A stretch of DNA of 64,000 nucleotides from a virus (taxonomy: Duplodnaviria > Caudoviricetes): IMG/VR virus record IMGVR_UViG_3300034374_002231, positions 668 through 64,667 of that record. One strand, written 5' to 3'. How positions within the stretch are numbered: the stretch's first letter is position 1; each line of letters begins with the position of its first letter. This document shows positions 581-58,905 of the stretch, piece after piece. The notes below the pieces were generated by a model, which ran no database searches, was not told the origin of the DNA, and saw only the letters and a program-made list of their open reading frames with translations. The position numbers and the translations under genes were made by a program.

Positions 581-616
581 ACCCCGCAGGTGCCCCCCGC
601 CCTGCGGGGTTTTTTA
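581..616 (+). terminator. Rho-independent terminator where the two arms converge
   Basis: ACCCCGCAGG...CCTGCGGGGT 10-bp stem followed by a T run. Confidence 0.75.
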
Positions 617-30576: not shown

Positions 30577-30654
30577 GTGCATCTCCTGTCGTGGGTCAAG
30601 TCAGCCACCCTATGCGGCTGTCAGGGATGCACGCAGCATACACTCGTACAGAAT

Positions 30655-40694: not shown

Positions 40695-41111
40695 GTGGTG
40701 CATGGTACCAACAAATATAGGGGTCTGACAATCCGGGACTCTTTATGCACGAAACAGGGGGTCGGCAGGGGGGTGGGGTGCTCCTTAATGCGCATGCGAT
40801 TGATACCCCCGGGGGAAGGTCGAATGGTCGGCTTGGACCGAATGTTCCGGTAATGTTCTGAAATGTGGTGTTGTGGGTGCGGAATAGCATTACTGCCGCA
40901 GCGGGCCGCCGCCTCGAAGCAGGGGGGATGCCCCCCGGTGGGGGTCCAGCCCCGGGGCGTTATACGTGCCGTATAACAGACCGTGACGCGATATTAAATG
41001 ACACGTTCCGAAACCAAACCGTGGCAAGGCATGGCAAAACGTGTCAGATATAGGTTATCGGAAGGGCAATCCCGCCTGACCGAAACCATGTCAACCGAGA
41101 AAGGACAAGAC

Positions 41112-41810
41112 ATGACAAACGCAACCGCAACCGCAACCGCCAAGGCAACCGCAACCGCCAAGGCAACCGCAACCGCCAAGGCACGCAAGCCGCGCGCTGC
41201 AAAGGCGCAAGCCGCCCCCGTCAATTTTTCCGTCAAAGATGCGGCGCTTGCCGCAACGGATGGGCTGAAAGCGCAAGGGCGGCTCGAAAGCGCGCAAGCT
41301 GCGCGCGACAAGGCCGCCCTTGCTTTCCGCGATATGGTCATCGCGGCAAGCCTGACCACGAACGATTTTCGTGGTGCGACAAAAGACAAGACGCGTGGTG
41401 AAGGCAAGCATTGTCAGGCCTTGCGGCAAGAGGTGGCCTTGTCTTGGTTGAACGCGGCCGAACGCAAGATTGTCGAAACGGCGAACGATAAGGCGAACGG
41501 TTCGCCTTATCACAAGGCCATGACCAAGGTCACGAACGCGGTCAATCGGTTCCTTGACCATGTGGATCGCGTGGCCAAGGCTGAGGCTGAGGCCAAGGCC
41601 AATGGCGGCAAGGGCAAGGGCAAGGCTAGCCCCGGCGGCCGCACAATCAAGGCCATGTCCGAGGTACTGACCGAGGGTTTCGGCACGATGCTGAAACGCC
41701 TTGGCAACGACAAGAGGTCGAAAAACCCCAGCGGGGCGAACCACGATACGGTCCGCAGGGTTTTGGAAAAGGCATTGAGAGATGCCTTGGCGGAAATGGC
41801 CAAGCAATAA
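41112..41810 (+). CDS. First early gene, Ala/Lys-rich protein
   Basis: RBS GAAAGGA before ATG at 41112; N-terminal TATAKA repeats (18-bp unit); followed by a terminator. Confidence 0.7.
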   Translation: MTNATATATAKATATAKATATAKARKPRAAKAQAAPVNFSVKDAALAATDGLKAQGRLESAQAARDKAALAFRDMVIAASLTTNDFRGATKDKTRGEGKHCQALRQEVALSWLNAAERKIVETANDKANGSPYHKAMTKVTNAVNRFLDHVDRVAKAEAEAKANGGKGKGKASPGGRTIKAMSEVLTEGFGTMLKRLGNDKRSKNPSGANHDTVRRVLEKALRDALAEMAKQ

Positions 41811-41814
41811 CACG

Positions 41815-41844
41815 AAGGGCGGCGCGAAAGCGCCGCCTTTTTTT
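41815..41844 (+). terminator. Rho-independent terminator
   Basis: GGCGGCGC-GAAA-GCGCCGCC then TTTTTTT. Confidence 0.9.
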
Positions 41845-42017
41845 GTGCCTTGCGTCCTGCGGGACGCTGCGTCACCAGTTACCCCAACAGCACGGGGCGC
41901 GTTATACGCACCGTATAACAGCACCGGGTCGACAGCGGTTCCGGCCCAGCGACACGTCTCCACGCGTCACCAGTTACCGCAGCAGCACAGGGCACGAGGT
42001 CGGACAGCACACGGCAT

Positions 42018-42157
42018 ACGAGGTTGTTATACGGGCCGTATAACACGTTCGGCCGCCGCATCACCAGTTTCCACAGCAGCACAGGGCACGAGGTTGTTAT
42101 ACGGGCCGTATAACACGTTCGGCCGCCGCATCACCAGTTTCCACAGCAGCACAGGGC
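42018..42157. repeat. Exact 70-bp direct tandem duplication containing the palindromic box
   Basis: 42018-42087 equals 42088-42157; degenerate partial units near 41870 and 41965. Confidence 0.9.
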
Positions 42158-42329
42158 GCGCTACACGCTAGGCGCGAAGCCGGGCGAAAAATTTACAACT
42201 TGTGGGGGGTGCGAGGATTACGCTCAGAGCATTGCGTCCACCACTGCGTGGTGTAGCTAACGCTACGTGTAGCGTAACCCAAATTGAGATTTTGTCAACC
42301 CCCTCGCTCACGGGTTGTAACAATTCTAC

Positions 42330-42995
42330 CCAGAGATTGTTCCACAAATATATCACAACGTGGATGCGTTATACGGCCCGTATAACACTGATTTCATGTA
42401 ATGTTCCAGTCTACAACCATACACCTATTGTTCCAAATGTTCCAGTCGCCTAAAAAGAGTGGAACAATATAACGCGTTGATAACAAAAGAAAAAACGGGT
42501 ATTGTTCCAATGTTCCATAAATTCGAGGAATAGTGACCTCGGCAACCGTTTTCGTCTGACCGAATGCACCGCACCGTCAAACACCCCCCAAATTTTTCCA
42601 ACCCGGTATATACTAAAAAATGTGGAACATTTGGAACATTTGGAACAATAGGCATCTACTACTACTACTAACTATAAATATATATATATATATCAGACAC
42701 TTACACCAACACACATGCAGGTTTGTATTGTTCCAATTCAAAATCTTGAATAGGAACATTTGGAACATTACCGAATATCAATGACTTAGCGTTTTCGGTC
42801 CCGCTGGACCGCACACCCTGCACCCTATGCTGCCAATCCCACACCGTTGTTATACGACCTGTATAACAGCTACCAATACTTACCAGAACCTCACATGATA
42901 TTCTCAAATGAAACATGAGATTCTCAAATGAAGCATATTGACTCAAATCGTATTATATCGTACTATACTACGTATAGTTTGTTTGTTCCCGGGTC
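42330..42995. other. AT-rich non-coding region with TGTTCC/GGAACA repeats (candidate origin)
   Basis: More than 10 copies of TGTTCC in both orientations, some with 9-bp period; (CTA)n and (TA)n runs at 42656-42693. Confidence 0.5.
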
Positions 42996-43518
42996 TTGTT
43001 GACCAACGCTCTTTGACATCGTGATTGGCTGCGCCTGACGCAGCCCGGCCTAGCTAGGTGTTATACGCCCCGTATAACACCGATGATGCAGAACCAACCG
43101 GCCATTGCCTGTGACGCGCGGCTACGAAAACACCGCAGCGTGGGCACGCTCCCACTTCCAGTGGGGGCGTTGCAGAAATCAAGAACCAGCAAGCCACTGT
43201 ATTGGCATCAAGGGAGACGGGAGTTCCCCCCTACAAAACTCGAAGCCCCACGCAGCTATCACACGCGACGGTACGTTGGCCTGTTATACTTCGCGACCCG
43301 CGATGCGGGTTATACGCCTCGTATAACGGCTCATGCCACTTCATACCTAGCCCAGCCTGCACCCGAGAATGGTGCGGAAGCTGCTGCCGGTTGGTTCGAC
43401 AAAACACATACGTCAGCATCCGCTGACGTGGGCGACAACAGCTAGGACACGCGGATGCCCGCGTGTCTCATGGTGCAGTCGCGCCACCACACCGAAACCA
43501 TTGAGAAAGGAACTACAG

Positions 43519-43728
43519 ATGAAATTGACACACATCCCCCTCGCAGTCCGCGCCACTGTTCTGGCGCATGCCCGCGACATGCGCAGTATCAGGGGCGATC
43601 AACAACCAGATCAGTGGCTGGACGCCCGCTATCGGGCCGCTGCTGATCTGGCGCATGACTTGCGCCGTCTGCACGGCATCCACGCGCCCCAGTGGGCGCG
43701 CGACCTGATCTTTCAGGTCGCAACATAA
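43519..43728 (+). CDS. Early hypothetical protein
   Basis: RBS GAAAGGA; MKLTHIPLAVRA..., 69 aa. Confidence 0.65.
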   Translation: MKLTHIPLAVRATVLAHARDMRSIRGDQQPDQWLDARYRAAADLAHDLRRLHGIHAPQWARDLIFQVAT

Positions 43729-43793
43729 CCACACCGAAACCATCGCAACACGCCCCGTTATACGGGGCATATAACAGTGAGAAAGGAAGTATC

Positions 43794-44225
43794 ATGCTCA
43801 GCACAACAACACAGAACCAGATCAATCAGGAATGGGAACGCAAGGCAGAAGCCTTTGCGTGGGAGGACAAGCACCCTGTCCACCCGACAACCGACGTGCG
43901 GAACGACGCGTTCCGCAACGCGATGAACGCAATCGGGCACAAAGCCCTGCCGTTCATGAATGCCAAGTATACATACGTCAGCGATCTGGCGTGGGATGCC
44001 GCTGCCTGTGCCGACCTGGAGAAGGGGGACACGCTGTTCCTCCTCATCCGCGAGTGCGGCACGTCCCTGTTCACGCCGATCACGCAGGAGCCAGATCACG
44101 TCCAGCGCAAGCTGGAGGAGGTCATCGAACACGTAGACGTGTGCAGCACCCGCAAGGCTGTACTGCGCGTGGTGCGTGAAGCCTATGACACCTTCACGGT
44201 GTCGGTCGTGTACAACCGCGTGTGA
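43794..44225 (+). CDS. Early hypothetical protein
   Basis: Palindromic box and RBS GAAAGGA before MLSTTTQNQ. Confidence 0.7.
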   Translation: MLSTTTQNQINQEWERKAEAFAWEDKHPVHPTTDVRNDAFRNAMNAIGHKALPFMNAKYTYVSDLAWDAAACADLEKGDTLFLLIRECGTSLFTPITQEPDHVQRKLEEVIEHVDVCSTRKAVLRVVREAYDTFTVSVVYNRV

Positions 44226-44282
44226 CGCGGACAACCAGCGCCCCGTTATACGGGGCGTATAACATGAGAAAGGAGACCAGCA

Positions 44283-44459
44283 ATGGCTGGAGAACTTATG
44301 ACATTTGCCGCCCTGCCACAGGGCGCGCCGTTTTTCTTCAACGGCAACCGCTGCATCAAGCGGTCGTCCAAGACGGCCGAACTCGTTGACTACAAGCGGA
44401 CGTTCTACTTCCGCAAAGACGACGTGATCGCCCTCGGCTGGCCGGGAGATGGCGAATGA
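44283..44459 (+). CDS. 58-aa early hypothetical protein
   Basis: Box and RBS AAGGAG; MAGELMTFAALPQGAPFFFNGNRCIKRS; ATGA overlap with the next gene. Confidence 0.7.
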   Translation: MAGELMTFAALPQGAPFFFNGNRCIKRSSKTAELVDYKRTFYFRKDDVIALGWPGDGE

Positions 44460-44659
44460 CGCAGAAACCCACGCCCAAGACGTGCGCGTGCTGTGGGGAG
44501 ATGACCCCGCCGCTGATGCAGTGGTTCAACCAAGACACAGGCTACGGCCTGTGCGAGCCGTGCGCTGACTGGATCGAACAGCGAAGCGGGGCCGACTATC
44601 TCGCCGAAACCTACGGGCAGCGCGGAGTGCATATTGCAGATAACAGGGAGCAGAGATGA
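44456..44659 (+). CDS. Small zinc-finger protein
   Basis: CACCG...QWFNQDTGYGLCEPC. Confidence 0.7.
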   Translation: MTQKPTPKTCACCGEMTPPLMQWFNQDTGYGLCEPCADWIEQRSGADYLAETYGQRGVHIADNREQR

Positions 44660-44868
44660 GAACTAACGTAGACCCACACTGTATAACGTGTGGTGACGAG
44701 TACCCTCACGCGCGCCGCGCGTTGGGGTACCAGACCTGCCTTGACTGTGGGCAGGAAGCCGCTGTGGCCATGCGCGCAGGGTGGTGCATCGTGCCGCTGC
44801 CCAAGCAGGGTTACACACGGGTCACCCGCAAAGACGAACTGCAACACCTCAACCAGAAGCCCCGCTGA
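44656..44868 (+). CDS. DksA/TraR-type C4 zinc-finger protein
   Basis: CITCGDEYPHARRALGYQTCLDC fits the CxxCG..I..R.....CxxC pattern. Confidence 0.7.
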   Translation: MRTNVDPHCITCGDEYPHARRALGYQTCLDCGQEAAVAMRAGWCIVPLPKQGYTRVTRKDELQHLNQKPR

Positions 44869-44906
44869 TGCGGGGTTATACACAGCGTATAACAAGGAGA
44901 ACGACA

Positions 44907-45806
44907 ATGACTTTTACTTTCGATAACGCACCGGCACCGCAGGGTGCCACTCTTCAGTCCTCGACCATGCTGGTCGAACTGAGTATCTCGGTCTGGACTG
45001 CGCGCAAGCTGGACAAGCGTGCGTCTGACGACGTGACAACGCAGAAACGTGCCGACAAGGGTATGGCCAACGTCCACAAGAAGCTGATTGCCTGTGACGA
45101 GTTGACCGCGATCCAGAAGTTCGCCGCGAACGCACGCACGTCGCACCACTATGCTATGACGCTGCCGTGGTCCGACAGCGGGCTGCGTATGCTGCCGACG
45201 TCGAAGTATTTCGGCTATCACAAGACCATGACCGGACTGCAAGCCGAGTTCGACAGGCTCGTGGAGAAGTTCTTGGCCCGGTACGAGTGGCTTATCAACG
45301 AGACCCAGATCAAGCTGGGCGACATGTATAACCCAGCCGAGTACCCGTCGCTTGACAGGATGCAGGCCAAGTTCGGCTTTCGCCTCAACTACATTCCCTT
45401 GCCCGAGGCGGGCGACTTCCGCGTGGACATTGGCAACCAGCAGGCTGCCGAGTTGCAGCAGCAGTATGCTTCGTTCTACGAAGCGCAGCTGACCCGGGCG
45501 ATGGGCAACCTGTGGTCCCGTACATACAAGACGCTGACCCACATGTCCGAGCGGCTGGACTACGCTGACCACGAACAGAAGAAGGTGTTCCATAACACGT
45601 TGGTGTCCAACGTGCTGGACCTGATCGACATGATGGAGACCATGAACATCACCAACGATCCGAACATGCAGCTGCAAAGCCGTCGCCTCAAGATGGCGAT
45701 GCAGGGTATCTCGCCGGACGCGTTGCGTGAGGACGAGGGTCTGCGCCGTGAGACCAAGCGGGCTGTGGACGAGGCCATCAAGGCCCTGCCGTCGCTCGAC
45801 TTCTAA
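44907..45806 (+). CDS. DUF3150-like phage protein
   Basis: Box and RBS AAGGAG; MLVELSISVWTARKLD...TLPWSDSGLRMLP...YNPAEYPS. Confidence 0.65.
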   Translation: MTFTFDNAPAPQGATLQSSTMLVELSISVWTARKLDKRASDDVTTQKRADKGMANVHKKLIACDELTAIQKFAANARTSHHYAMTLPWSDSGLRMLPTSKYFGYHKTMTGLQAEFDRLVEKFLARYEWLINETQIKLGDMYNPAEYPSLDRMQAKFGFRLNYIPLPEAGDFRVDIGNQQAAELQQQYASFYEAQLTRAMGNLWSRTYKTLTHMSERLDYADHEQKKVFHNTLVSNVLDLIDMMETMNITNDPNMQLQSRRLKMAMQGISPDALREDEGLRRETKRAVDEAIKALPSLDF

Positions 45807-45878
45807 TACAATACGTCAACCAGCGGGGCGTTATACGCCCCGTATAACAAATCAAATCAAACCAAACGGAGAACTACC

Positions 45879-46967
45879 ATGACTAACACTATGTATCACC
45901 TCGGTCTGGACCAGACCGCAAACCTCATCAAGATCATTGGCCACAAGCGCACCGTGCTGGCGCAGGGTCACATGGGTACCGGCAAGTCCTCGCTGCTCAA
46001 GATGCTGGCCGAGATGCTGCCGACGCACACCCCCGTGTACTTCGACTGCACGACCAAGGACTTGGGTGACCTCATGTTGCCACGCATCGCCGAGGTGGAC
46101 ACAGAGACACCGTACGTCAGCTACGCACCGAACGAGGAGTTGGGTATCCACCACAACACCCCCGTGATCGTCATGCTTGACGAGTATGGCAAGGCTAACG
46201 CCGCTGTGAAGCAGGGCCTGACCGCCTTCATGCTGGAGCGCCGGTTGGGTAACAACGTGCTGCACCCTGACAGCATCGTGTTCTGCACCACCAACCTCGG
46301 GGCCGAGGGCGTGGGCGACTTGCTTGTGGCACACCAGCGCAACCGCATCATCCCTGTCACGGTACGCAAGCCTAGCAACGTGGACTGGATCGAGTGGGGC
46401 ATCAACAACGGGATCGACCACAGCCTGTTGGGCTGGTGCCGTGACAACCCGCAGCTGTTCGCTGACTTCACCGAGATCAAAGATCCGGACGAGAACCCTT
46501 ACATCTTCCATCCTCGTGCGCAGCGTGCTGCCTTCGTCACACCTCGTTCGCTCGAAACTGCGTCTGACATTCTCAAGACGCGTGAGTTCCTTGACGACCA
46601 GACGGTGGTGGCTGGCTTGATCGGTGCCATCGGTGATCGTGCGGCGATGGACTTGATGGCCTTCGTCAAGCTGGCTGACCAGCTGCCCAGCTTGCAGTCT
46701 ATCAAGGACGACCCGAAGAACGCTATCGTGCCGACCAGCGCCGCAGCTGTGTGTATGGTGGTGTATCGTACCATGGCAGCGCTCGAACGTGACTGGCTCG
46801 ACGCGTGGATGGACTACATGGTGCGGCTGCCGAAAGAGGCGCAGGGTATGTTTGCCAACGGTGTCCGCACCCCGAAGTATTCCAAGCAGCCCATGGTGAT
46901 GACCAACACCAAGTTCACCAACTGGGCCATGCAGAACAGCTATCTCTACGCAGCTGACATCAAGTGA
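45879..46967 (+). CDS. AAA+ ATPase (MoxR/AAA_5-like)
   Basis: Walker A GHMGTGKS, Walker B VMLDE, TTN, NR, TPRS. Confidence 0.88.
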   Translation: MTNTMYHLGLDQTANLIKIIGHKRTVLAQGHMGTGKSSLLKMLAEMLPTHTPVYFDCTTKDLGDLMLPRIAEVDTETPYVSYAPNEELGIHHNTPVIVMLDEYGKANAAVKQGLTAFMLERRLGNNVLHPDSIVFCTTNLGAEGVGDLLVAHQRNRIIPVTVRKPSNVDWIEWGINNGIDHSLLGWCRDNPQLFADFTEIKDPDENPYIFHPRAQRAAFVTPRSLETASDILKTREFLDDQTVVAGLIGAIGDRAAMDLMAFVKLADQLPSLQSIKDDPKNAIVPTSAAAVCMVVYRTMAALERDWLDAWMDYMVRLPKEAQGMFANGVRTPKYSKQPMVMTNTKFTNWAMQNSYLYAADIK

Positions 46968-46974
46968 GGGACAC

Positions 46975-47130
46975 ATGTCGACCGATGACCTGAAAACGGC
47001 CCAGCTTATTCTGGACCTCAAGGAAATGCTTCGCGTCTACGTAGACGGGAAGGATCACAACGAAACTCGTGGCCAAGCCTTGGCCACGATACGCGAAGCA
47101 AACGCATGGCTATATGGAGAGGACAAATGA
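46975..47130 (+). CDS. 51-aa hypothetical protein
   Basis: RBS GAGG; MSTDDLKTAQLILDLKEMLR; ATGA overlap with the next gene. Confidence 0.6.
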   Translation: MSTDDLKTAQLILDLKEMLRVYVDGKDHNETRGQALATIREANAWLYGEDK

Positions 47131-47420
47131 AACCGTACCAGAAGAAGTACAAGCCCAAAGAGGGCAAGCGGAACACGCTTTGGACTGAAGAAGACCGCGA
47201 CCTGCTGCGCACACTGGCTGCGCAAGGTGTGCCGCATTGGGACATTGGCAAGCGTCTCGACCGCTCGCCCGGTTCGATCAGCCAGCAGCTGTACCTGATG
47301 CGTAAGCAAGATGAGGCGGAACGCTTCATCGACGCAGTGATGGAGGACTACCACGAGGTGGAGGTCACGCCGAAACCGTCGCTGTGGCGGCGCATCATGA
47401 ACATTATACGACGCGTATAA
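47127..47420 (+). CDS. GcrA-like helix-turn-helix protein
   Basis: WTEEDRDLLRTLAAQGVPHWDIGKRLDRSPGSI resembles the GcrA N-terminal domain. Confidence 0.6.
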   Translation: MKPYQKKYKPKEGKRNTLWTEEDRDLLRTLAAQGVPHWDIGKRLDRSPGSISQQLYLMRKQDEAERFIDAVMEDYHEVEVTPKPSLWRRIMNIIRRV

Positions 47421-47436
47421 CAGACAGGAGAACAAC

Positions 47437-48651
47437 ATGTTTATGGGTAAGTTGACACCCGAGCAACGGGTGCAGAAAGCCGTGATCGACATCATGGCCA
47501 AGGATCGCTACGCCGCACTGGCTGGCATTCTGATGATCGGCGAGAAGCGTGTGGAGTATGACGCTGACAAGTGTCCGACCGCGTACACCGACGGTAAGAA
47601 CGTGGTGTTCGGTGCTGACTTCATGGACGGCATGACCGACGCAGAGTTGCGGTTCCTCGCTATCCACGAGGAGAAGCACAAGATGTATCGCCACCTGACA
47701 ACGTGGGAGTGGATGTGGAAGGAGGACAAGCAGCTTGCCAACCAAGCGTGCGACCACGTCATCAACATTGAGACAGTGGACGAGAACCCTGACGGCTTCG
47801 CCACTATGACAGGCAAGCTGGCCGAGGGTTGCTGTGACTTCAAGTACCGTGGGTGGGATGCTGCACAGGTATTCCATGACCTCAAGCGCAAGCGTGACGA
47901 GCAGGGCGGCAGCAGTGGTGACGGTGATGGTGACTACGACGGCAGCTTCGACCAGCATGGCTGGGAAGAAGCGCAGGACATGACCGCCGAGGAGAAGCGC
48001 GAATTGTCCCGTGCCGTGGACGAGGCCATACGTCAGGGTGTCTTGCTTGCAGGTAAGACCGGGTCCGGTGGCGACCGCAGCTTCGAGGAACTGCTGACAC
48101 CGCAGGTCAACTGGCGTGACGCGCTGCGTGAGTTTGTACAGAACACATGCGCTGGGTCTGACTACTCAACGTGGCGCAAGCCCAACCGTCGGTACGTCGG
48201 GATGAACATCTACATGCCCTCCGGTGTCAGCGAGACAGTGGGCGAGATGGCCGTGCTGATCGACACGTCAGGGTCTACCTACGCACCGGGTGTGCTGCCC
48301 GCCTTCATGTCCGAGGCCAAGGCCATAGCCGAGACTGTCCGACCGGAGCGGGTGCACATCATCTACTGGGACACCTCGGTGTGTCAGGCTGAGGTGTACG
48401 AGCAGGACGAGTTGGACAAGATGATCTCCAGCACGCAGCCCAAGGGCGGTGGAGGCACCGACATTACCTGTGCCATCGACTACATGGCCGAGCATAACAT
48501 CAAGCCGCAAGCATCCATCGTACTGACTGATGGTTATCTGTTCGGTGGCTGGGGATCGTGGTCACACCCTGTGATGTGGTGCGTGATCGACAACAAGAAC
48601 GCCAAGCCCGACACGGGCAAGGTCGTACACATTCGTGCGAGTGACATGTGA
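47437..48651 (+). CDS. Metallopeptidase-VWA protein (DUF2201-like)
   Basis: PTAYTDG, HEEKH, ACDHVIN, WRKPNRR, MIDAS DTSGS, GGGGTD, LTDG. Confidence 0.85.
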   Translation: MFMGKLTPEQRVQKAVIDIMAKDRYAALAGILMIGEKRVEYDADKCPTAYTDGKNVVFGADFMDGMTDAELRFLAIHEEKHKMYRHLTTWEWMWKEDKQLANQACDHVINIETVDENPDGFATMTGKLAEGCCDFKYRGWDAAQVFHDLKRKRDEQGGSSGDGDGDYDGSFDQHGWEEAQDMTAEEKRELSRAVDEAIRQGVLLAGKTGSGGDRSFEELLTPQVNWRDALREFVQNTCAGSDYSTWRKPNRRYVGMNIYMPSGVSETVGEMAVLIDTSGSTYAPGVLPAFMSEAKAIAETVRPERVHIIYWDTSVCQAEVYEQDELDKMISSTQPKGGGGTDITCAIDYMAEHNIKPQASIVLTDGYLFGGWGSWSHPVMWCVIDNKNAKPDTGKVVHIRASDM

Positions 48652-48700
48652 TACCAACCACGCCTCGTTATACGGGGCGTATAACACAAGGAGATGAGCA

Positions 48701-50589: not shown

Positions 50590-50821
50590 GTTGTCATATC
50601 GCGTGGAATATCTGCCTGACAACGAGCATGTCAAAGTACTATGTTTTACGTCGAAACAACTTGCATTGATACCGGATGGTACGTATCGTATAGATACCCT
50701 CCCGCAAATTCTGCGCGACAAATTGGCTGTTCTAGCCATACTGGAGACCCCACCTCCGCCGGTTGATGTGGCGGGAGTGGGCCAGCGCGTAGGAGAGCGA
50801 GCGTTCTGGGTGTACCTCTAA
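50576..50821 (+). CDS. Hypothetical protein resembling the C-terminus of the previous gene product
   Basis: LPQILRDKLAVLAIL..VAGVGQR..FWV. Confidence 0.7.
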   Translation: MSYGELSYRVEYLPDNEHVKVLCFTSKQLALIPDGTYRIDTLPQILRDKLAVLAILETPPPPVDVAGVGQRVGERAFWVYL

Positions 50822-50880
50822 CAACGTACGAGGCGTGTTATACGCCTCGTATAACATCACCAGTTACATGGAGACGACGA

Positions 50881-51231
50881 ATGGGAATGACGCCCGAAGC
50901 AAAGATCAAGAAGGTTGTCGCACAGCAACTCAAGGACATGGGTGCGTACTACTTTTATCCAGTGACAGGGGGGTACGGGGGCAGCGGAGTGCCCGACATT
51001 GTTGGATGCTACAACGGTAGATTTTTTGGCATCGAATGCAAAGCCGGGAACAATAAGCCAACCGCACTGCAACAGAAAAACATCGACTCCATCTTAGCCG
51101 CAGGTGGCCTGTCATGGGTCGCCAATGAGAAAAACATGCGTATGACCGAAGAAATTTTACTCGCAGCAGAAGAAGTCCTACGCGAAGACGAAAGGATCGC
51201 ATCTGAAAATAACCGAACCATGGGGGACTAA
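50881..51231 (+). CDS. VRR-NUC domain nuclease
   Basis: TPEAKIKKVV..GGYGGSGVPDIVGC..FFGIECKAG..PTALQ. Confidence 0.88.
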   Translation: MGMTPEAKIKKVVAQQLKDMGAYYFYPVTGGYGGSGVPDIVGCYNGRFFGIECKAGNNKPTALQQKNIDSILAAGGLSWVANEKNMRMTEEILLAAEEVLREDERIASENNRTMGD

Positions 51232-51325
51232 CCTACGGGAGTTCCTACTCATCATGTTCCAACACGACATCGTGTGGAAACCAAACAAACCCGGCGATAC
51301 GCCACCCTTTTAAAGGACTAAAACA

Positions 51326-51967
51326 ATGGCTGATACAGCATATGAAGCGATAACGATCACTAACGAAATACACACAGGTGCAGCTTTCGGTATTCAACAT
51401 GGCACCGGACGCAGCTGCTATATCCCAGCAACCGTTATGTATTCTAGTGGCTCCCGCCCCGGAGACGTCGTGCAAGCGGTTCTGATAGACAACCCGAGCA
51501 ACGACCCCGACATCCGGAACCGCACGCCGTATTTGGTACGGTTCATCAAGCCCATGGTAACCCCGACACAGCTCGAACTGCCACTGGAACAGCCCTCGCA
51601 GCTGGCGCAAGAGATCGTCGCAAAGCTGGGCGGCGCCGCCCCGACCCCGGCCCCGGCCCCGGCTCCGGTACCTACGATAAAGGAGCGTGCGGCAAAGCAC
51701 GTCGAGGCGACCATGATGGCCGGTGGGGTGTGGAGATTTGCGACTATGTTTGAGGATTTCATGGCGGCCGAGGGTAAACCCGGAGCAGCACGCTCGGATC
51801 ACATGGAGGAGTATTGGGCAGTGGCGCATGTTATGCGTCGTTTGTTTGAGACTGATCGCTGCGCGAAATGGGTTCTTTACAATCGAGCCTCAAACACCAA
51901 AGCCTCAAGAGAGTGGTATAGCTGCCGCCCTGAAACCATCGACGTAGCGGAGTTCGACGATGAGTAA
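51326..51967 (+). CDS. Hypothetical protein
   Basis: 213 aa; RBS AAGGA; PAPAPAP linker. Confidence 0.7.
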   Translation: MADTAYEAITITNEIHTGAAFGIQHGTGRSCYIPATVMYSSGSRPGDVVQAVLIDNPSNDPDIRNRTPYLVRFIKPMVTPTQLELPLEQPSQLAQEIVAKLGGAAPTPAPAPAPVPTIKERAAKHVEATMMAGGVWRFATMFEDFMAAEGKPGAARSDHMEEYWAVAHVMRRLFETDRCAKWVLYNRASNTKASREWYSCRPETIDVAEFDDE

Positions 51968-52448
51968 GCCGTTAACAGTCAACGAACAGCACGTATGGGC
52001 ATACCTCCTGCAACACCGAAACGCCCGGGCCTTTGAAGTGGCCGAGGCTGTTGGCGTGAGTGAGGCGCTCGTTGCGGCCATGATGGACCGCATTTCCTCT
52101 GACAACTGGCGGGAGGAGGTAACCCCTCCCGCTACCAGCGGCGTCAAGTATGACAGTGACAAGCTGCCGATGCACCTCTTGCCACCTGAACTGCTGGAAG
52201 GCACCGCTGCGGTGCTGGCCTTCGGTGCTCGCAAATACACTCCCCGCAACTGGGAACTCGGCATGGAGTGGCACCGACCCTACTCTGCCCTGATGCGTCA
52301 TATGTTGGCGTGGTGGGGTGGAGAGGATCTCGACCCGGAGACTGGGCTGTCACACACATGGCATGCGGCATGCTGCATCGCGTTCTTGATGGCCTACGAA
52401 CAACGCAAGATCGGAACAGACGACCGACCGAGGGAGCACACCGCATGA
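51960..52448 (+). CDS. HTH fused to a dATP/dGTP diphosphohydrolase domain (DUF5664-like)
   Basis: GVKYDSDK..LLP..VLAFGARKY..RNW..ALMRH..GEDLDPETGLSH..HAACC. Confidence 0.85.
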   Translation: MSKPLTVNEQHVWAYLLQHRNARAFEVAEAVGVSEALVAAMMDRISSDNWREEVTPPATSGVKYDSDKLPMHLLPPELLEGTAAVLAFGARKYTPRNWELGMEWHRPYSALMRHMLAWWGGEDLDPETGLSHTWHAACCIAFLMAYEQRKIGTDDRPREHTA

Positions 52449-53025: not shown

Positions 53026-53272
53026 GGTTGCAAGGATCGGCCCCGCCGATGACGGGGTGCAGCGGTTTTACCGGCTGTATGCGCGGCGCAAGTCTGATTT
53101 CGTGGTTGCCGAGCATGACTTTTGCTGCCGCACACTTGGTGGTGCGGTCGCGGAACATAAAGCCAGAAAGCATGCAGAGTGGTTGATGAACACCAAGCCT
53201 GCGTACGATCAGGTCCGCATCACCCTGCACGTTGTCCATCCAATCATGGAGAAGGGGTTTGAAGATGAGTGA
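53018..53272 (+). CDS. Hypothetical protein
   Basis: MSEVARIGPADDG...; overlaps the upstream stop. Confidence 0.6.
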   Translation: MSEVARIGPADDGVQRFYRLYARRKSDFVVAEHDFCCRTLGGAVAEHKARKHAEWLMNTKPAYDQVRITLHVVHPIMEKGFEDE

Positions 53273-53753
53273 CGATCTGGTGAAGCGGGCAAGGCATAAT
53301 GCTCTGTCTGACATGCCCCATTATGCAAGCGTTGAACTCATTGAAGCGTTAGCCGACCGCATCGAGGAGTTGGAGCGGGAGCGGGTTCTATCAAAGGCGG
53401 CGTATGATGGTGTGTCGTCGCTGCTTTTGAGTGTCCAGCAGGACTGCATCAAGGAACACAACCGCGCCGAAGCCGCAGAGGCCGCGCTGAAAGAGGCGAT
53501 TGAAAAAGAGCTGGATGCAATCAGCACTCTGGACGCTTGGTTCGACCGAAGGGAACTTGGTCACGCCGCCGTGGATCAGGCAGTTGTTGACGCCGCTTCA
53601 GGGTATCTCAGAACATCAAGATGCGGAGGAATGCCTCAAGAGGAAAGTGACCTGATCCTTGGCGTGATGCAGAACATGGCTAGGCTTGGACTGTTTGCCG
53701 ACCTGTTTGCCCGCGCCTACCCCGCCGAACTGAAAGGGGAGGGTCGGGGATGA
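53265..53753 (+). CDS. Modular-array gene 1
   Basis: MSDDLVKR...ADRIEELE...AEAAEAAL...AELKGE. Confidence 0.75.
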   Translation: MSDDLVKRARHNALSDMPHYASVELIEALADRIEELERERVLSKAAYDGVSSLLLSVQQDCIKEHNRAEAAEAALKEAIEKELDAISTLDAWFDRRELGHAAVDQAVVDAASGYLRTSRCGGMPQEESDLILGVMQNMARLGLFADLFARAYPAELKGEGRG

Positions 53754-54124
53754 GTGACGATCTGGTGAAGCGGCTGCGTGAAGATCGACCCGTGACACAG
53801 GATATGGCAAGCACGATGCAATGCGCCCTGCAAGACGCAGCAGCCGACCGCATCGAAGAACTGGAGGATAAGCTGAACTGGGTCATCGTAGAACGAGATG
53901 AGACATTTGCTTTGATGCTGGATCGTGCACAAACAGCGGAAGCCAAGCTGGCAAAGAATGAAGCCCTGATGCAAGCAGGCTTTGCGGAATACGAACACAG
54001 GCTGGCGAAGGCGGTGGAGGCTTTGGAGAAACTGGCACGGCTGGGTAACGGCGACCTTTACGGCAACAGCGATGGCAACATGATTGCCCGCACCACCCTC
54101 GCAGAACTGAAAGGAGATAAGTGA
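53750..54124 (+). CDS. Modular-array gene 2
   Basis: MSDDLVKRLR...AADRIEELEDKL...AEAKLAK...ARTTLAELKGDK. Confidence 0.8.
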   Translation: MSDDLVKRLREDRPVTQDMASTMQCALQDAAADRIEELEDKLNWVIVERDETFALMLDRAQTAEAKLAKNEALMQAGFAEYEHRLAKAVEALEKLARLGNGDLYGNSDGNMIARTTLAELKGDK

Positions 54125-54585
54125 TGACTAAGCCAGACTGGGAAAACTTCGCCAAGGCTGTGCTGACAGACTGGCCAACTGGTGATCTGGACGGCTCTGT
54201 TCTGTTCGACTTGTCGCTGCAATACGGCATGATCCAAGAGGTGCCGGGTGGGTATAACTCTGACCACCATATCGACGCAGACTGTATCTGCCCGGAAGAA
54301 GGCGATCCTTGGTATGAATACACCTTCCGAGGCGAGGCTGGGCCGGGGCTGTATTCCATTTCCAACATGACCAAGCGCATCCAAGAATTGCATGACGAGA
54401 ACGCACGGCTTCGTGATGCCGTTTACATTGATGACTTGACTGTAACCTTGCAGGGGAAAGACAGAGCCGTTGCGATTGCAGGAATGGAGCGGGCTTTAGA
54501 CTTAATCAATGCAGACCTAACGCAAGAAGCAAAAGTGGCTCTGCGCACCACCCTCGCAGAACTGAAAGGAGAGAAGGATGAGTGA
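54121..54585 (+). CDS. Modular-array gene 3
   Basis: Unique acidic N-terminal domain, KRIQEL, ends RTTLAELKGEKDE. Confidence 0.75.
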   Translation: MMTKPDWENFAKAVLTDWPTGDLDGSVLFDLSLQYGMIQEVPGGYNSDHHIDADCICPEEGDPWYEYTFRGEAGPGLYSISNMTKRIQELHDENARLRDAVYIDDLTVTLQGKDRAVAIAGMERALDLINADLTQEAKVALRTTLAELKGEKDE

Positions 54586-54808
54586 CGATCTGGTGAAGGC
54601 AGCGGTGCTGGCACAAAACACAATAGAAGCGATCTATCAATGGGTCGATAAGGTCGAAAAGGCTGGCGGCACAACTTCAATCGAAGGGATTGCCGTTGCC
54701 CATGCAATGTTCAAAAGCCTTCAAAGCAACAGAAGTAGACTTGATAAGCTAATAACACAGCCGCTGGAGAAAGCCCTCGCAGAACTGAAAGGAGAGAAGG
54801 ATGAGTGA
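54578..54808 (+). CDS. Modular-array gene 4
   Basis: MSDDLVK...ALAELKGEKDE. Confidence 0.75.
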   Translation: MSDDLVKAAVLAQNTIEAIYQWVDKVEKAGGTTSIEGIAVAHAMFKSLQSNRSRLDKLITQPLEKALAELKGEKDE

Positions 54809-55157
54809 CGATCTAGAAGTGCTTGGGTCAGACGGTATTAGACGTACATATGATGAGCACTACGACACCATGATGGATGTAGAACAAGACCCAACTGGTG
54901 CTTGGCAGGCCATACATAACCAACACGACCGCATCGAGGAACTTGAGGACAAGCTGGATTGGGTTATCACGGAACGGGACGAGACTTTTGCTTTGATGCT
55001 GGATCGTGTGCAAACAGCAGAGGCCAAGCTGGCGAAGGCGGTGGAGGCTTTAGAGAAGCTGGCACGGCTTGGCAATGGCGACCGTTATGGCAACAGCGAC
55101 GGCAACACGATAGCCCGCACCACCCTCGCAGAACTGAAAGGAGAGAAAGATGAGTGA
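54801..55157 (+). CDS. Modular-array gene 5
   Basis: MSDDLE...DRIEELEDKL...AEAKLAKAVEAL...ARTTLAELKGEKDE. Confidence 0.8.
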   Translation: MSDDLEVLGSDGIRRTYDEHYDTMMDVEQDPTGAWQAIHNQHDRIEELEDKLDWVITERDETFALMLDRVQTAEAKLAKAVEALEKLARLGNGDRYGNSDGNTIARTTLAELKGEKDE

Positions 55158-55539
55158 AGATCTAGTGAAGCGGCTGCGAACATCTTGGGATGCTGACCGC
55201 AGTATAATTTCACAGACTGACAACTGGATGAGGGAACGGCAAGAAGCAGCCGACCGCATCGAGAAATTAGAGGCCGAACTGCACCTGATGAAAACATCAG
55301 GTATCGCAGAGGTGGCCGCGCGAAACCCAAGCGTCATGGAATACATGCGGCATTGGGAAGGAAGAGCAGAAGCAGCAGAGGACAAGCTGGCGAAGGCGGT
55401 GGAGCTGGTCAATACAGCGTTTAATGAAGGCTTTGGCGAGGGAATGAATGACGTGATGCGCCGCCGTGGTGGAAAGTCTTGGTATGAAAGCAGATCTCGC
55501 AAGCGCATCGCAGAACTGAAAGGAGGCCCCGATGCCTGA
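55150..55539 (+). CDS. Modular-array gene 6
   Basis: MSEDLVKRLR...AADRIEKLE...AEDKLAKAVE...IAELKGG. Confidence 0.8.
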   Translation: MSEDLVKRLRTSWDADRSIISQTDNWMRERQEAADRIEKLEAELHLMKTSGIAEVAARNPSVMEYMRHWEGRAEAAEDKLAKAVELVNTAFNEGFGEGMNDVMRRRGGKSWYESRSRKRIAELKGGPDA

Positions 55540-55904: not shown

Positions 55905-56058
55905 GGACGAACGTGCCGGGTGGCAGGGCTGGTGCAAGAGCGTTGTTGACGTAGTCCTCTGTTGCCATCTGGCACATTTCGATTGTTTCGAATACCGGCG
56001 CTGGGGGCGTATAGCACTCCCCACTCATCGAACATATGAGGATCAACGGACTGAACAT
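55867..56058 (-). CDS. Small Cys-containing, possibly exported protein on the opposite strand
   Basis: MFSPLILICSMSGEC...C...WRCFDW; promoter-like sequence just upstream. Confidence 0.6.
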   Translation of the reverse strand: MFSPLILICSMSGECYTPPAPVFETIEMCQMATEDYVNNALAPALPPGTFVLKWRCFDWGVSA

Positions 56059-56104
56059 GCGCTGATACTACCACAAAATATAACACCGACAAAGGAGAAC
56101 AACG

Positions 56105-57934
56105 ATGGACCTGATTACGCTCGATTTCGAGACGTACTACGACAGGGAATACAGCCTGTCGAAGCTGACGACAGAAGAGTACATCCGCGACCCGCGGTTC
56201 CAAGTTATCGGGGTGAGCACCAAGCTGAATGACGATGAACCTGTCTGGGTTACAGGGAAGGCCAGCGAGGTGCTGACACATCTGCACACGTTGCCGTGGG
56301 AGAATGCGATCATGCTCTGTCAGAACACCATGTTCGACGGGGCGATCATGACGTGGCGCTGCGGTATCAAGCCGAAAGTGTTGGCCGACACGATGCTTAT
56401 GTCGCGCGCCATTTATGGCGTGGAAGTATCACATAGCCTCAAGGCTATATCCGAGCGGCTGGGCATCGGGGTCAAAGGCGACGAGGTAATCAACGCGCTG
56501 GGCAAGCGCCGGGCCGACTTCACACCAGAACAGATGGAGCGGTACGGTGAATACTGCCGCACCGATGTTACGCTGACATACATGGCGTTCAAGAAGTTTA
56601 TAGAGGCAGGGTTCCCAAAGAAGGAACTCAAGCTGATAGACACTACATTGCGCATGTTTACTGATCCGGTTCTGGAGTTGGATCGCGCACATCTGGAGAA
56701 GCACCTCGCCGAAGTCACTGCGCGCAAGAGCGCACTGCTGACCGATGCAGGTGTCACCGACAAGAAAGACCTGATGTCGAACCCGAAGTTTGCAGAGATG
56801 CTTCTCTCGTACGGTGTAGAACCGCCCATGAAGGTCAGCCCGACTACTGGCAAAGATACATACGCCTTTGCCAAGGGTGACGAGGAGTTTGTCGCTTTGT
56901 TGGAGCACGACGACGAGAACGTGCAGACACTCATGGCAGCGCGTCTAGGTAACAAGTCCACACTGGAAGAGACCCGCACGCAGCGGTTCATCGACATCGC
57001 CAAACGTGGCCCTCTACCCGTGCCTATCAGATACTACGCGGCACACACCGGACGCTGGGGCGGTTCTGACAAGATCAATCTGCAGAACCTGCCGAGCCGT
57101 GGACCGAACGCGAAGCAGATCAAGAACTCCATTGTGGCCCCGGCAGGGCACAAGCTGATAGACGCCGACTCCGCACAGATCGAAGCCCGGGTGCTGGCGT
57201 GGCTGGCCGAACAAGAAGATGTGGTGCAGACCTTCGCCGAGAATGGTGACGTGTACAAACGCATGGCTGCCAAGATCTTCAACAAGGACGAGGGGGACAT
57301 CGACAAGCAGGAGCGCCAGATCGGCAAGGTTGTGATCCTTGGCGCAGGATATGGTGTTGGTCATAACAAGCTGCAGACGTTTCTCAAGCTGCAAGCCGGG
57401 GTCGAGGTAGACCTCAAGGAAGCCAAGCGGATCATCGACGTGTACCGCAGTTCCAACGATAGGATCAGTGGCCTGTGGCGCGAAGCGGACAACATGCTCC
57501 GCGAAATGTCCAAGGGTAACAGCAAGCAGTTTGGGCGGCCCGGTGTGCTGACAGTGCATGGTGACCGCAGCGCCATACAGCTGCCGAGTGGGCTGGACAT
57601 CAAGTACACGGACCTCAAAGCGACACCGGGTGAGATCGGGTACGACTACACATATCAGACCCGCAGAGGGCCGAACAATATCTATGGCGGGAAGGTCATA
57701 GAGAACGTGACGCAAGCACTGGCACGTTGTATTGTGGGCGAACAGATGTTAAAGATTGCCAAACGGTACCGTGTGGTGCTAACTGTACATGACTCCGTTG
57801 TGGCATGTGTACGCAGCGAAGAAGTAGACGAAGCACAGGCATACATCGAACAGTGTATGCGCTGGACCCCTGACTGGGCAGAGGGCTTGCCGGTAAACTG
57901 TGAGTCCGACGTCAGTCGCAGATACGGAGAATAA
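56105..57934 (+). CDS. Family A DNA polymerase
   Basis: Exonuclease LDFETY; HTGRWGG; motif A DSAQIEARVLAWLA; motif B RQIGKVVILGAGYG; motif C TVHDS. Confidence 0.95.
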   Translation: MDLITLDFETYYDREYSLSKLTTEEYIRDPRFQVIGVSTKLNDDEPVWVTGKASEVLTHLHTLPWENAIMLCQNTMFDGAIMTWRCGIKPKVLADTMLMSRAIYGVEVSHSLKAISERLGIGVKGDEVINALGKRRADFTPEQMERYGEYCRTDVTLTYMAFKKFIEAGFPKKELKLIDTTLRMFTDPVLELDRAHLEKHLAEVTARKSALLTDAGVTDKKDLMSNPKFAEMLLSYGVEPPMKVSPTTGKDTYAFAKGDEEFVALLEHDDENVQTLMAARLGNKSTLEETRTQRFIDIAKRGPLPVPIRYYAAHTGRWGGSDKINLQNLPSRGPNAKQIKNSIVAPAGHKLIDADSAQIEARVLAWLAEQEDVVQTFAENGDVYKRMAAKIFNKDEGDIDKQERQIGKVVILGAGYGVGHNKLQTFLKLQAGVEVDLKEAKRIIDVYRSSNDRISGLWREADNMLREMSKGNSKQFGRPGVLTVHGDRSAIQLPSGLDIKYTDLKATPGEIGYDYTYQTRRGPNNIYGGKVIENVTQALARCIVGEQMLKIAKRYRVVLTVHDSVVACVRSEEVDEAQAYIEQCMRWTPDWAEGLPVNCESDVSRRYGE

Positions 57935-57935
57935 C

Positions 57936-58604
57936 ATGAGCGCAGGTGCGTGGTCGTTCAGTCGCATGAAGGGGTTCGAGACGTGCCCGAAGCAGTATTA
58001 TCACGTCAACGTGTTGAAGGAGTTTCCCTTCAAAGAGACTGATGCCACGCGCTATGGTACCGAGTTCCACAAGGCGGCCGAGGACTACATTCGGGACGAC
58101 ACCCCTGTGCCGGAACGGTTCTCGTTTGCCATGCCGACGCTGGAGGCCCTCAAGGCCAAGCCGGGCGAAAAGCACTGCGAACTCAAGATGGGTCTGACCG
58201 AAGACCTGCAGCCCTGCGGGTTCTATGACAAGAACGTGTGGTTCCGCGGCATCGTAGACCTCGCCATCATCAACGGCGAGAAAGCGTTTATCGTGGACTA
58301 CAAGACGGGCAAGTCTGCAAAGTACGCGGACACTGGGCAGCTGCAACTGATGGCCCTGTCTCTGTTTGCGCACTTCCCCGAAGTTAAACGGGCCAAGGGC
58401 GGGCTTTTGTTTGTCATCGCGGATAAGTTTGTGGGCGCGGACTTCAATGCGTCAGATCACAACGTGCTGTGGTCTCCGTGGATCAAGAAGTACGCCCAAC
58501 TGCAGAAGGCCCACGAGACAAACGTGTGGAATCCGGTACCGAGTGGGCTATGCCGAAAGCATTGTCCCGTGGTAGAATGTCCGCATAACGGACAGCACAG
58601 GTGA
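57936..58604 (+). CDS. Cas4-like PD-(D/E)xK exonuclease
   Basis: WSFSR..FETCPKQY, GTEFH, GIVD, VDYKTGK, QLQLMAL, C-terminal CRKHC..C. Confidence 0.88.
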   Translation: MSAGAWSFSRMKGFETCPKQYYHVNVLKEFPFKETDATRYGTEFHKAAEDYIRDDTPVPERFSFAMPTLEALKAKPGEKHCELKMGLTEDLQPCGFYDKNVWFRGIVDLAIINGEKAFIVDYKTGKSAKYADTGQLQLMALSLFAHFPEVKRAKGGLLFVIADKFVGADFNASDHNVLWSPWIKKYAQLQKAHETNVWNPVPSGLCRKHCPVVECPHNGQHR

Positions 58605-58607
58605 CGC

Positions 58608-58877
58608 ATGCCGTACGTCAACAAACCACGCCCCTACGCGAAAGAGTGGCAGCAAGAGAAGGCCCGCAACGAGAAGCCAGCCCGTGCAGAGCGGGCCAAG
58701 GCACGGCGGGCCTTCGACAAAAAACACGGTAAGAAAGCCCGAGAAGGGCTGGACCTCAGCCATCGCAAGGACTTGTCCCGTGGTGGTGATAATTCGGACG
58801 GTGTACGTCTGGAAAGCCCGAGCGCTAACCGCGCCCGTGGCGGTGCCTTGAGCAAGCCCCCAAAGAAAAAGGCCTAG
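58608..58877 (+). CDS. Small basic HNH-like protein
   Basis: GLDLSHRKDLSRGGDN...SPSANRAR. Confidence 0.6.
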   Translation: MPYVNKPRPYAKEWQQEKARNEKPARAERAKARRAFDKKHGKKAREGLDLSHRKDLSRGGDNSDGVRLESPSANRARGGALSKPPKKKA

Positions 58878-58905
58878 TTATACGGGCCGTATAACGGAGA
58901 ACCAC

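Follow-up and report, generated by a model that had tools for sequence, protein, structure and literature searches.

An uncultivated tailed phage (Duplodnaviria; Caudoviricetes) carries sixteen copies of a 19-bp palindromic box, all of them in its early and replication region. The boxes were analyzed in a window of 64,000 nucleotides comprising bases 668–64667 of the 64,667-base IMG/VR record IMGVR_UViG_3300034374_002231, rated complete; this genome was designated G000. They are one case of a clade-wide system, wider than the first-pass annotation of this DNA had reported, in which related phages have palindromes of their own types at the same gene junctions. Because the boxes keep their positions while their sequence changes genome by genome in a concerted way, a phage-encoded reader that is specific for the box sequence and co-evolves with it is indicated. 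Our tentative reading, to which we assign a probability of about 0.4, is that the box is a DNA site for a specific phage protein that would control transcription of the early and middle genes by the host RNA polymerase.

Sixteen palindromic boxes in the early arm

The virion genes occupy the minus strand from 40890 down to 614 and include those for terminase (38521–40083), portal (34253–36784), fibres, and ejection-type proteins. The early/replication arm lies on the plus strand from 40998 onward and encodes a DUF3150 protein, a MoxR-like AAA ATPase, a DUF2201 peptidase/VWA protein, a Hjc-like protein, a MazZ-like diphosphohydrolase, PolA, a PD-(D/E)XK nuclease, an SNF2 helicase, and a primase-polymerase (prim-pol)/DUF927 protein.

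The motif GTTATACG-N3-CGTATAAC was searched with 0 and up to 3 mismatches. Twelve exact copies and four with one mismatch (42849, 43757, 44875, and 47403) were found, sixteen in total, spanning 40959–58895, and every coordinate given in the first-pass annotation was thereby reproduced. Dinucleotide-preserving shuffles of the window gave on average 0.00 exact copies and 0.14 copies at up to 3 mismatches (maximum 1). The full 64,667-base record contains the same 16 boxes and nothing further at up to 2 mismatches. The 40.9-kb virion arm is free of boxes, as had been stated for 40 kb of it, and any palindrome family there has at most 2 copies.

The arms are near-invariant and the spacer is variable, in agreement with the earlier description. 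Arm positions 2–7 and 14–19 are identical in 16/16 boxes, positions 1, 8, 12, and 13 in 15/16, and the arm-to-arm spacing is constant in all sixteen. The spacer takes the form of nine distinct triplets with a G+C content of 85%, among which the reverse-complement pairs GGG/CCC and GGC/GCC are present. In hairpin form, a box would have an 8-bp stem and a 3-nt centre with the core CG-SSS-CG. Half-sites outside the boxes are rare (GTATAAC four times, GTTATAC three times).

Eight boxes are gene-proximal, as noted earlier; they precede the ATG codons at 43794, 44283, 44907, 45879, 47437, 48701, 50881, and 58906 with gaps of 10–30 nt, and a GGAG-type ribosome site stands before each ATG. Six boxes (41901–43060) are located in a mostly non-coding leader of 1.3 kb. 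The individual boxes are as follows.

Box 1, 40959..40977: exact, spacer TGC; located where the virion arm and the first plus-strand gene diverge, 135 nt before the likely start of that gene, 41112.
Box 2, 41901..41919: exact, CAC; first box past the canonical terminator, preceded by a CACCAGTT element.
Box 3, 42026..42044: exact, GGC; within copy 1 of a 70-bp tandem repeat.
Box 4, 42096..42114: exact, GGC; within copy 2 of the 70-bp tandem repeat.
Box 5, 42368..42386: exact, GCC; at the left edge of the TGTTCCA-iteron, AT-rich region.
Box 6, 42849..42867: one mismatch (G8.T12), ACC; on the right side of the iteron region.
Box 7, 43060..43078: exact, CCC; about 95 nt past a sigma70-like promoter, an arrangement found alike in the related genome G002.
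Box 8, 43309..43327: exact, CCT; inside the doubtful open reading frame (ORF) 43083-43445 and missing at that place in the 97%-related genome G005.
Box 9, 43757..43775: one mismatch (C7.A13), GGG; 18 nt before ATG 43794, with an overlapping alternative hairpin at 43752-43768.
Box 10, 44245..44263: exact, GGG; 19 nt before ATG 44283, alternative hairpin at 44238-44258.
Box 11, 44875..44893: one mismatch (A8.C12), CAG; 13 nt before ATG 44907 (DUF3150), with a separate GC hairpin abutting upstream.
Box 12, 45830..45848: exact, CCC; 30 nt before ATG 45879 (AAA ATPase), alternative hairpin at 45823-45843.
Box 13, 47403..47421: one mismatch (A1.C19), ACG; overlaps the stop of ORF 47106-47420, 15 nt before ATG 47437 (DUF2201 peptidase/VWA).
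Box 14, 48667..48685: exact, GGG; 15 nt before ATG 48701 (343-aa protein), alternative hairpin at 48660-48680 with a U.G pair.
Box 15, 50837..50855: exact, CCT; 25 nt before ATG 50881 (Hjc-like protein), alternative hairpin at 50826-50852, followed by CACCAGTT.
Box 16, 58877..58895: exact, GGC; 10 nt before ATG 58906 (SNF2 helicase).

Genome-specific boxes in related phages

A megablast search of 40000–52000 against GenBank phages returned zero matches, and the closest PolA matches were about 36% identical (Rhizobium RHph_TM3_14A group, Pseudomonas KPP25). The segment 41001–51000 was present in 23 sequencing datasets, all of freshwater DNA. A search of IMG/VR with the ATPase as a marker retrieved at least 547 related contigs; 80 loci at 65%–97% identity were kept, and 79 were analyzed. 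The first-pass annotation had pointed to relatives as the place where such boxes should recur, and boxes of the G000 type or own-type equivalents were indeed conserved: 78 of the 79 ATPase-linked loci have one palindrome family of their own with three or more copies. These palindromes are 15–21 bp long and mostly of GTTA..TAAC types. The commonest arm starts are GTTAGT (38 loci), TGTTAG (10), GTTAGG (6), and GTAGTG (4), while TTTACG, TTTAGG, GTATGC, TTATGC, and GTTATG are rarer.

The box changes with distance between genomes. IMG/VR contains near-identical contigs as well as more remote ones with the G000 box. G005 and the contig L006, with DUF2201 proteins 97% identical to that of G000, carry the same box. 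G002 has 11–12 sites of it, two with a compensated A>G/T>C pair, and further copies occur in G003 (3), G004 (4), and L038 (7), some with both outer bases changed. In G001, where DUF2201 is 65% identical, one G000-type box is accompanied by 11 other GTTA..TAAC palindromes, with GTTAGC types in the leader and GTTAGTG types before genes. G003 and G004 likewise have GTTAGAC types in the leader and GTTATACG types before genes. Perfect even-length palindromes without a loop are found in some lineages (GTTAGGGAATTCCCTAAC, 9/9 identical), and the GTAGTG lineage has a conserved AAA/TTT centre that is present in both orientations.

Positions are retained, both at gene junctions of the early arm and in a leader cluster beside the presumed origin. 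Upstream of the ATPase gene, a family box ends 15–85 nt from the start codon in 49 of 76 loci; DUF2201 has a box of the local type ahead of it in all six genomes compared, and the helicase gene is preceded by a box in G000, G001, and G002 but not in G003. The order of terminator, box, and a conserved CCAGTT element recurs across the clade. In three more complete genomes, the boxes (13, 9, and 15) are limited to one stretch of 8–19 kb each. No comparable palindrome family was found in KPP25 or in the N4-like phage Axy11, and a word search for the arm sequences in the full texts of a paper library yielded unrelated papers and no description of the boxes.

Two further observations concern the relatives. 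The box in the ATPase gene of the GTAGTG lineage arose by substitutions altering two residues of a conserved segment. The feature of G002 flagged as a 'direct terminal repeat' (L050:1-125 and the end of L053) is a (GATGGCGGC)n array of 9-bp tandem units, 125 bp long and present at both ends, and assembly wrap-around is a likelier source of it than true termini.

A GC-rich hairpin overlapping the boxes

At five of the eight gene-proximal boxes (43757, 44245, 45830, 48667, and 50837), the 5–7 nt directly upstream of the box are the reverse complement of the spacer and its flanking bases. The minimum-energy RNA fold at these sites is a GC-rich hairpin with the left arm of the box as its loop. Its energy is −13 to −17 kcal/mol compared with −6 kcal/mol for the box hairpin, a gap of 7–11 kcal/mol. 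Among the 54 distinct boxes of this lineage, a strong match to the flank was given by the true spacer in 19 cases and by the flipped spacer in 2; after removal of five G000/G005 orthologue pairs, the numbers were 14 and 1. Compensatory A>G and T>C changes distinguish orthologues, the flank cgAggc and spacer CCT of G000 (50837) corresponding to cgGggc and CCC in G005 (8835), and two sites have U.G wobbles that pair only on the plus strand. The overlapping hairpin is a real plus-strand structure, presumably of RNA. Where it is present, the box hairpin cannot form in the mRNA, and yet both arms of the box are still invariant. The same arrangement recurs in the L078 and L083 lineages; elsewhere in the clade, the position of the GC hairpins relative to the box differs, some preceding it, some following it, and some enclosing it.

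The base changes within the arms are informative about the level at which the box is read. Non-Watson-Crick positions in the 54 boxes, written for the mRNA strand, comprise 12 A.C and 5 G.T and thus have no plus-strand RNA bias. Compensated pair changes occur in 4 of the 54. Two GC stems of G001 that precede T runs have a box as their apex, and in G005 the apex of another hairpin has been exchanged for a box. Recognition as DNA is favoured by the conservation of the arms whatever the RNA context, by the excess of A.C over G.T, by the loopless palindromes, and by the AAA/TTT centres in both orientations. The spacing variation, the compensated pairs, the apex positions, the A trailing the box, and the distribution of TTT and AAA centres described below favour a hairpin or a polar element. 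As intrinsic terminators the boxes do not qualify, having an AU-rich stem (−6 kcal/mol) followed by A in 14/16 cases; the real terminator has 7 T.

Transcription signals and the search for an RNA polymerase

Three features in and next to the leader bear on transcription and replication.

41818..41844, plus strand: canonical intrinsic terminator with an 8-bp GC stem, a 4-nt loop, and a run of 7 T, which ends the first plus-strand gene (41112-41810); read from the sequence.
42938..42966, plus strand: sigma70-like promoter TTGACT-17-TACTAT, lying ahead of box 7 and of the early operon, assigned by consensus match.
42290..42780, no strand: AT-rich and non-coding, with about 12 TGTTCCA/TGGAACA iterons, one (TA)10 run, and CTA x5; boxes 5 and 6 flank it.

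The AT-rich iteron stretch is probably a replication origin. A further iteron site is located at 40840–40860, and GGAACA iterons are also present in G002 (~1793–2160) and G003. The consensus scan placed two sigma70-like promoters in the leader. The G002 counterpart of the one listed is TTGACA-17-TATTGT, and in both genomes these promoters lie about 95–110 nt upstream of the first operon box. Since sigma70-like promoters stand upstream and the terminator at 41818–41844 is the one canonical terminator seen, the host polymerase plausibly transcribes the arm.

The boxes themselves do not resemble host promoters. The suggestion of the first-pass annotation that TATAAC in each arm is a sigma70 −10 element fails, because there is no −35 element (the flank there is GC-rich), no box was called by the consensus scan, and at 6/8 sites the ribosome site follows TATAAC by 0–7 nt. 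The ribosome site abuts the boxes at 58877 and 44875, and therefore enzymes starting 4 nt or more past their site are excluded; to fit, an enzyme would have to begin transcription right where its own site ends, as T7-type polymerases do.

No recognizable phage RNA polymerase was found. The T7-like polymerase family PF00940 gave no match in any of the five complete clade genomes at E <= 1, which is weak evidence since the controls were also blank and the sensitivity is unproven. Pfam and PHROGs scans of 57 ORFs revealed no RNA polymerase family. Of the 15 largest proteins that are unassigned or belong to the virion arm, 14 lack the DxDxD motif; the sole match is in a tail-spike-like protein of 548 aa. 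The giant virion protein of 2485 aa (614-8071, minus strand) is of the polyvalent LPD39/zincin type with a conserved HExxH at 1272–1276; LPD39, ART, GNAT, or FtsK-gamma domains are present in its homologues, and there is a match to DarB-like PHROGs at its C-terminus. It was considered as a virion polymerase and rejected, as PDB searches by sequence and with a 17-sequence profile gave low-complexity noise only and DxDxD was lacking.

The proteins p343 (48701-49732) and p286 (49729-50589) are encoded by adjacent, overlapping genes that are conserved in the clade yet evolve fast, found in 47 and 53 of the 79 loci, respectively, at about 31%–35% identity. Their AlphaFold models are confident (predicted local distance difference test scores of 91.0 and 90.8), but Foldseek detected no structural relative at E <= 0.001; the best Z scores, 4.1 and 6.1, were within noise, the ESM Atlas contained only unnamed viral clusters (scores <= 0.85), and PDB profile searches were blank. 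A split minimal polymerase formed by p343 and p286 accordingly gained no supporting structural or profile match.

Possible function of the boxes

If the box is a DNA site, its reader would most simply be a symmetric dimer on the two invariant arms of 7–8 bp, the centres of which are 11 bp, about one helical turn, apart, with the 3-bp centre left free. Such a protein would control the passage of the host RNA polymerase along the plus arm, or its use there, with the box acting as an operator or a roadblock-type temporal switch for early and middle genes. In this lineage, the GC-rich centre may have been recruited to provide the 3' side of strong RNA hairpins that close the upstream cistron. We infer recognition at the DNA level, a dimeric reader, and a regulatory outcome from the invariant arms and free centre, the concerted evolution, the retention of the arms where the box hairpin cannot form in RNA, the lack of an RNA-strand mismatch bias, the loopless palindromes, and the plausible transcription by the host polymerase. 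A phage-wide regulon read by a dimeric protein, one of several options in the first-pass annotation, is the best supported of them, given that positions are kept while the sequence changes genome-wide, although no binder was found.

Several observations weigh against this reading. The helix-turn-helix (HTH) candidates 47106, 51960, and 52445 are poorly conserved across the clade, and none is linked to the box; the 65-aa HTH_17 protein 60894 is conserved across the clade and is likewise not linked to it. A set of sixteen roadblocks within a single operon seems more than is needed. The arm spacing, fixed in most relatives, shifts by 1–2 nt within about 22 of 78 related loci, a behaviour that suits a hairpin but fits poorly with a rigid dimer. 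The boxes are also polar, with A directly 3' of the box in 14/16 cases and the mirror T 5' of it in only 5/16 (Fisher P = 0.003). In the GTAGTG lineage (L108/L109/L112/L113), the leader boxes have TTT centres and the gene-proximal boxes AAA, and perfect boxes lie inside the coding sequences of the ATPase and DUF2201 (e.g. L112:2774, L112:4357). Finally, the spacer-flip test was negative over the whole family (411 distinct boxes: 165 vs 172; strong matches 35 vs 26), so that the overlapping-hairpin arrangement is lineage-restricted.

The boxes could instead be hairpins in a polycistronic early mRNA, used by a phage RNA-binding protein or endoribonuclease for cistron cutting, end protection, or translation gating. 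Such RNA-processing sites, also proposed in the first-pass annotation, are possible but unlikely. Their intercistronic location 10–30 nt before start codons on the transcribed strand, the freedom of loop length and sequence in many lineages (N3–N5), the apex boxes of G001 and G005, the compensated arm changes, and the GC hairpins without T runs that flank many junctions of the clade agree with this function. However, the box hairpin loses by 7–11 kcal/mol at five of the eight gene-proximal sites where its arms are invariant anyway, the mRNA strand has no wobble bias (12 A.C vs 5 G.U), and six to seven boxes lie in the cistron-free leader. Boxes within coding sequences would cut essential mRNAs in one lineage, and the conserved centre there occurs in either orientation. 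An invariant stem with a free loop is, moreover, the reverse of most RNA-protein recognition. It is rather unlikely that the boxes are core promoters, as duplex or extruded hairpin, for an unrecognized transcription enzyme or factor made by the phage or delivered with the virion, in the manner of the T7 group or N4. Sixteen copies of 19–20 bp before ribosome sites, with a leader cluster by an AT-rich origin-like region, recall the T7 group, and genome-specific concerted change is how polymerase/promoter pairs behave. The recurring order of terminator, box, and CCAGTT, the polarity of the element, the ATPase/VWA module common with N4-like phages, and the confident models of p343 and p286 without a structural relative point the same way; arm mismatches lean to template-strand wobble (12 vs 5), which is not significant. 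The form of the box also agrees with what is described for N4, a 3-nt loop on a stem and a GC-rich heptamer between inverted repeats. The searches nevertheless gave no T7-like polymerase by PF00940, Pfam/PHROGs, or DxDxD, and the giant protein is of the polyvalent zincin/LPD39 kind. The boxes have no conserved loop such as that of N4, the ribosome site abuts two boxes, sigma70-like promoters already stand upstream, and the helicase gene of G005 has no box. N4-type hairpin promoters, another option of the first-pass annotation, therefore hold in form only, with nine loop triplets, 16 copies over 18 kb, and no polymerase detected; the bases −10G and −11G of the N4 loop have no equivalent, the central base being a purine in nine boxes and a pyrimidine in seven. 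A related proposal, quite unlikely in our estimate, is that the clade runs its early/middle programme through a hairpin- or palindrome-specific factor of unrecognized fold, with p343 and p286 as candidates, which would read the lineage-specific boxes to initiate or process transcripts and would take over the role of the two polymerases of the distantly related N4-like phages.

That the boxes are recombination joints or self-spreading palindromes bounding gene cassettes, moved by gene conversion or a site-specific nuclease, is improbable. Six of 13 homology breakpoints between G000 and G005 are within 40 nt of a box, a cassette of about 350 nt with an ORF in G005 replaces exactly 58873–58894, and boxes were gained or lost between 97%-related genomes (43309; G005 1122), with half-box remnants. 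The box created by substitutions in a conserved ATPase segment and the Hjc-like, PD-(D/E)XK, and possibly HNH-like genes also fit. But three to four other breakpoints fall at box-free gene junctions, so that the joints suggested in the first-pass annotation are not separable from ordinary junction mosaicism; positional conservation across relatives at 65% identity argues for a selected function over selfish spread, and no transposase was seen in the ORFs scanned. Still less can be said for single-strand initiation (ssi)-like hairpins serving the primase-polymerase or helicase, or for other replication signals, which we consider very improbable. The box cluster flanks the iteron-containing, AT-rich origin-like region, a prim-pol/DUF927 protein is encoded, and hairpin-specific priming is known for a plasmid archaeo-eukaryotic primase, RSF1010 RepB' at ssiA/ssiB. 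The 40-kb virion arm, which also must replicate, has no boxes, and the tight association with ribosome sites would be unexplained. The reading as a DNA site for a phage-encoded regulator is the one we prefer, at the strength given above.

Other features of the genome

Two sequence elements accompany the boxes. A GGGGGG-N2-3-CCCCCC hairpin followed by GGTGGGGGTCC is located at 40920–40958, just 5' of the first box, and is conserved in L006, L038, and the tail of G002. The gaaaCCAGTT element is found at 41872–41879, 41967–41974, 42062–42069, 42132–42139, and 50858–50865, about 10–19 nt after leader boxes and before the Hjc-like gene, often followed by GCGgTGAGCCA; it occurs clade-wide whatever the box type, and in several relatives it resembles a −35/−10 pair of the extracytoplasmic function (ECF) type (GAAAC-N15/16-CGTT).

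A tandem array of six paralogous small genes is present at 53232–55539. Five of the six products start with MS[DE]DL (four with MSDDLVK), all six have AELKG 3–5 residues from the stop, and three end in LAELKGEKDE. Neighbouring genes overlap, giving a repeated GCAGAACTGAAAGGAG at each junction.

The protein encoded at 51960–52448 contains a MazZ-like dATP/dGTP diphosphohydrolase domain (PF18909, E = 1.8e-34) and a weak N-terminal HTH; it could indicate a modified base such as 2-aminoadenine, and PurZ was not recognized. A conserved acidic WDD(E) tail and Cys clusters make p302 (61088–61996) a likely single-stranded DNA-binding protein. The Arg/Lys-rich p89 (58608–58877) has an HNH-like DxxH..N..N segment, and p70 (44656–44868), with a weak DksA/TraR zinc-finger match (E = 0.004), may modulate the host polymerase. 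In the head-gene region, 30574–30626 (minus strand) matched the Rfam Mu-gpT-DE RNA (67 bits, E = 2e-13). Beyond this late-arm RNA, the Rfam and tRNA scans found nothing, including no tRNA.

Comparison with known systems and significance

In cluster K mycobacteriophages, the start-associated sequence (SAS) is described, in the sections of the source that deal with it, as a 13-bp asymmetric motif including AGGAG, 3–7 bp before the start codon; the optional extended SAS (ESAS) upstream of it consists of 17-bp imperfect inverted repeats 4–13 bp apart (PMC3203893). A passage of a 2025 article still gives the function of both as unverified (PMC12699233). As far as these accounts go, SAS/ESAS and the boxes are alike in being short repeats confined to the non-structural half, just before early-gene starts, kept at orthologues, and with a consensus varying by sub-lineage, and ESAS also has inverted repeats with a variable spacer. 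The boxes differ in being compact, near-perfect palindromes set apart from the ribosome site and having a leader cluster, and the hosts and phages are unrelated. By analogy, SAS/ESAS is the nearest described counterpart in logic; distribution is all that the two have in common, and the features defining SAS and ESAS were not found in the boxes.

The virion-RNA-polymerase promoters of N4, according to the part of a review devoted to them, are inverted repeats with a GC-rich heptamer and a 3-nt centre, in which conserved stem bases are read and others merely pair; three such sites lie at the first-injected genome end, and transcripts start about 11 nt from the loop centre (PMC4496689). On that description, G000 resembles N4 in its early-region sites, podovirus-like genome, late arm that ends in the gene for a giant virion protein, and distant kinship of the ATPase/VWA module (22%–28% identity with N4-like phages). 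It differs in that the boxes number 16 over 18 kb, their loop is free, and a polymerase was not detected. The promoters of the T7 group, as that review presents them, are similar to the boxes in number (about 16–17 copies), size (about 20 bp), location before ribosome sites and near an origin, and co-evolution (PMC4496689). Unlike the boxes, they are asymmetric, and they need a phage polymerase gene, which was not detected here (PF00940).

Many genome-specific intergenic sites at which one repressor blocks transcription are known as the stoperators of L5-like (cluster A) phages, the C1 operators of P1, and the inverted repeats of phiC31. Stoperators and P1 operators are asymmetric, occur in both arms, and belong to temperate phages, whereas the boxes are symmetric and restricted to one arm, and no repressor or integrase was seen. 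Repetitive extragenic palindromes (REP) and the bacterial interspersed mosaic elements (BIME) built from them are intergenic, lineage-specific palindromes whose stem is conserved at the foot and variable at the top, located at cistron ends after genes and spread by the REP-associated tyrosine transposase (RAYT). The boxes, unlike these, precede ribosome sites, and no Y1/HUH transposase was found in the subset of 57 ORFs scanned with Pfam.

If confirmed, the boxes would represent a clade-wide regulatory code in which more than 10 natural palindrome specificities occupy the same junctions in hundreds of uncultivated freshwater phages. In metagenomic phage contigs they would serve as markers of early arms, gene starts, and probable origins, and they would offer a tractable route to the missing transcription or RNA factor in phages related to N4-like viruses but without the polymerases of these. 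Synthetic biology would gain a naturally occurring collection of orthogonal site-and-reader pairs, and a DNA site overlapping a covarying RNA hairpin would be a clear case of two codes in one sequence.

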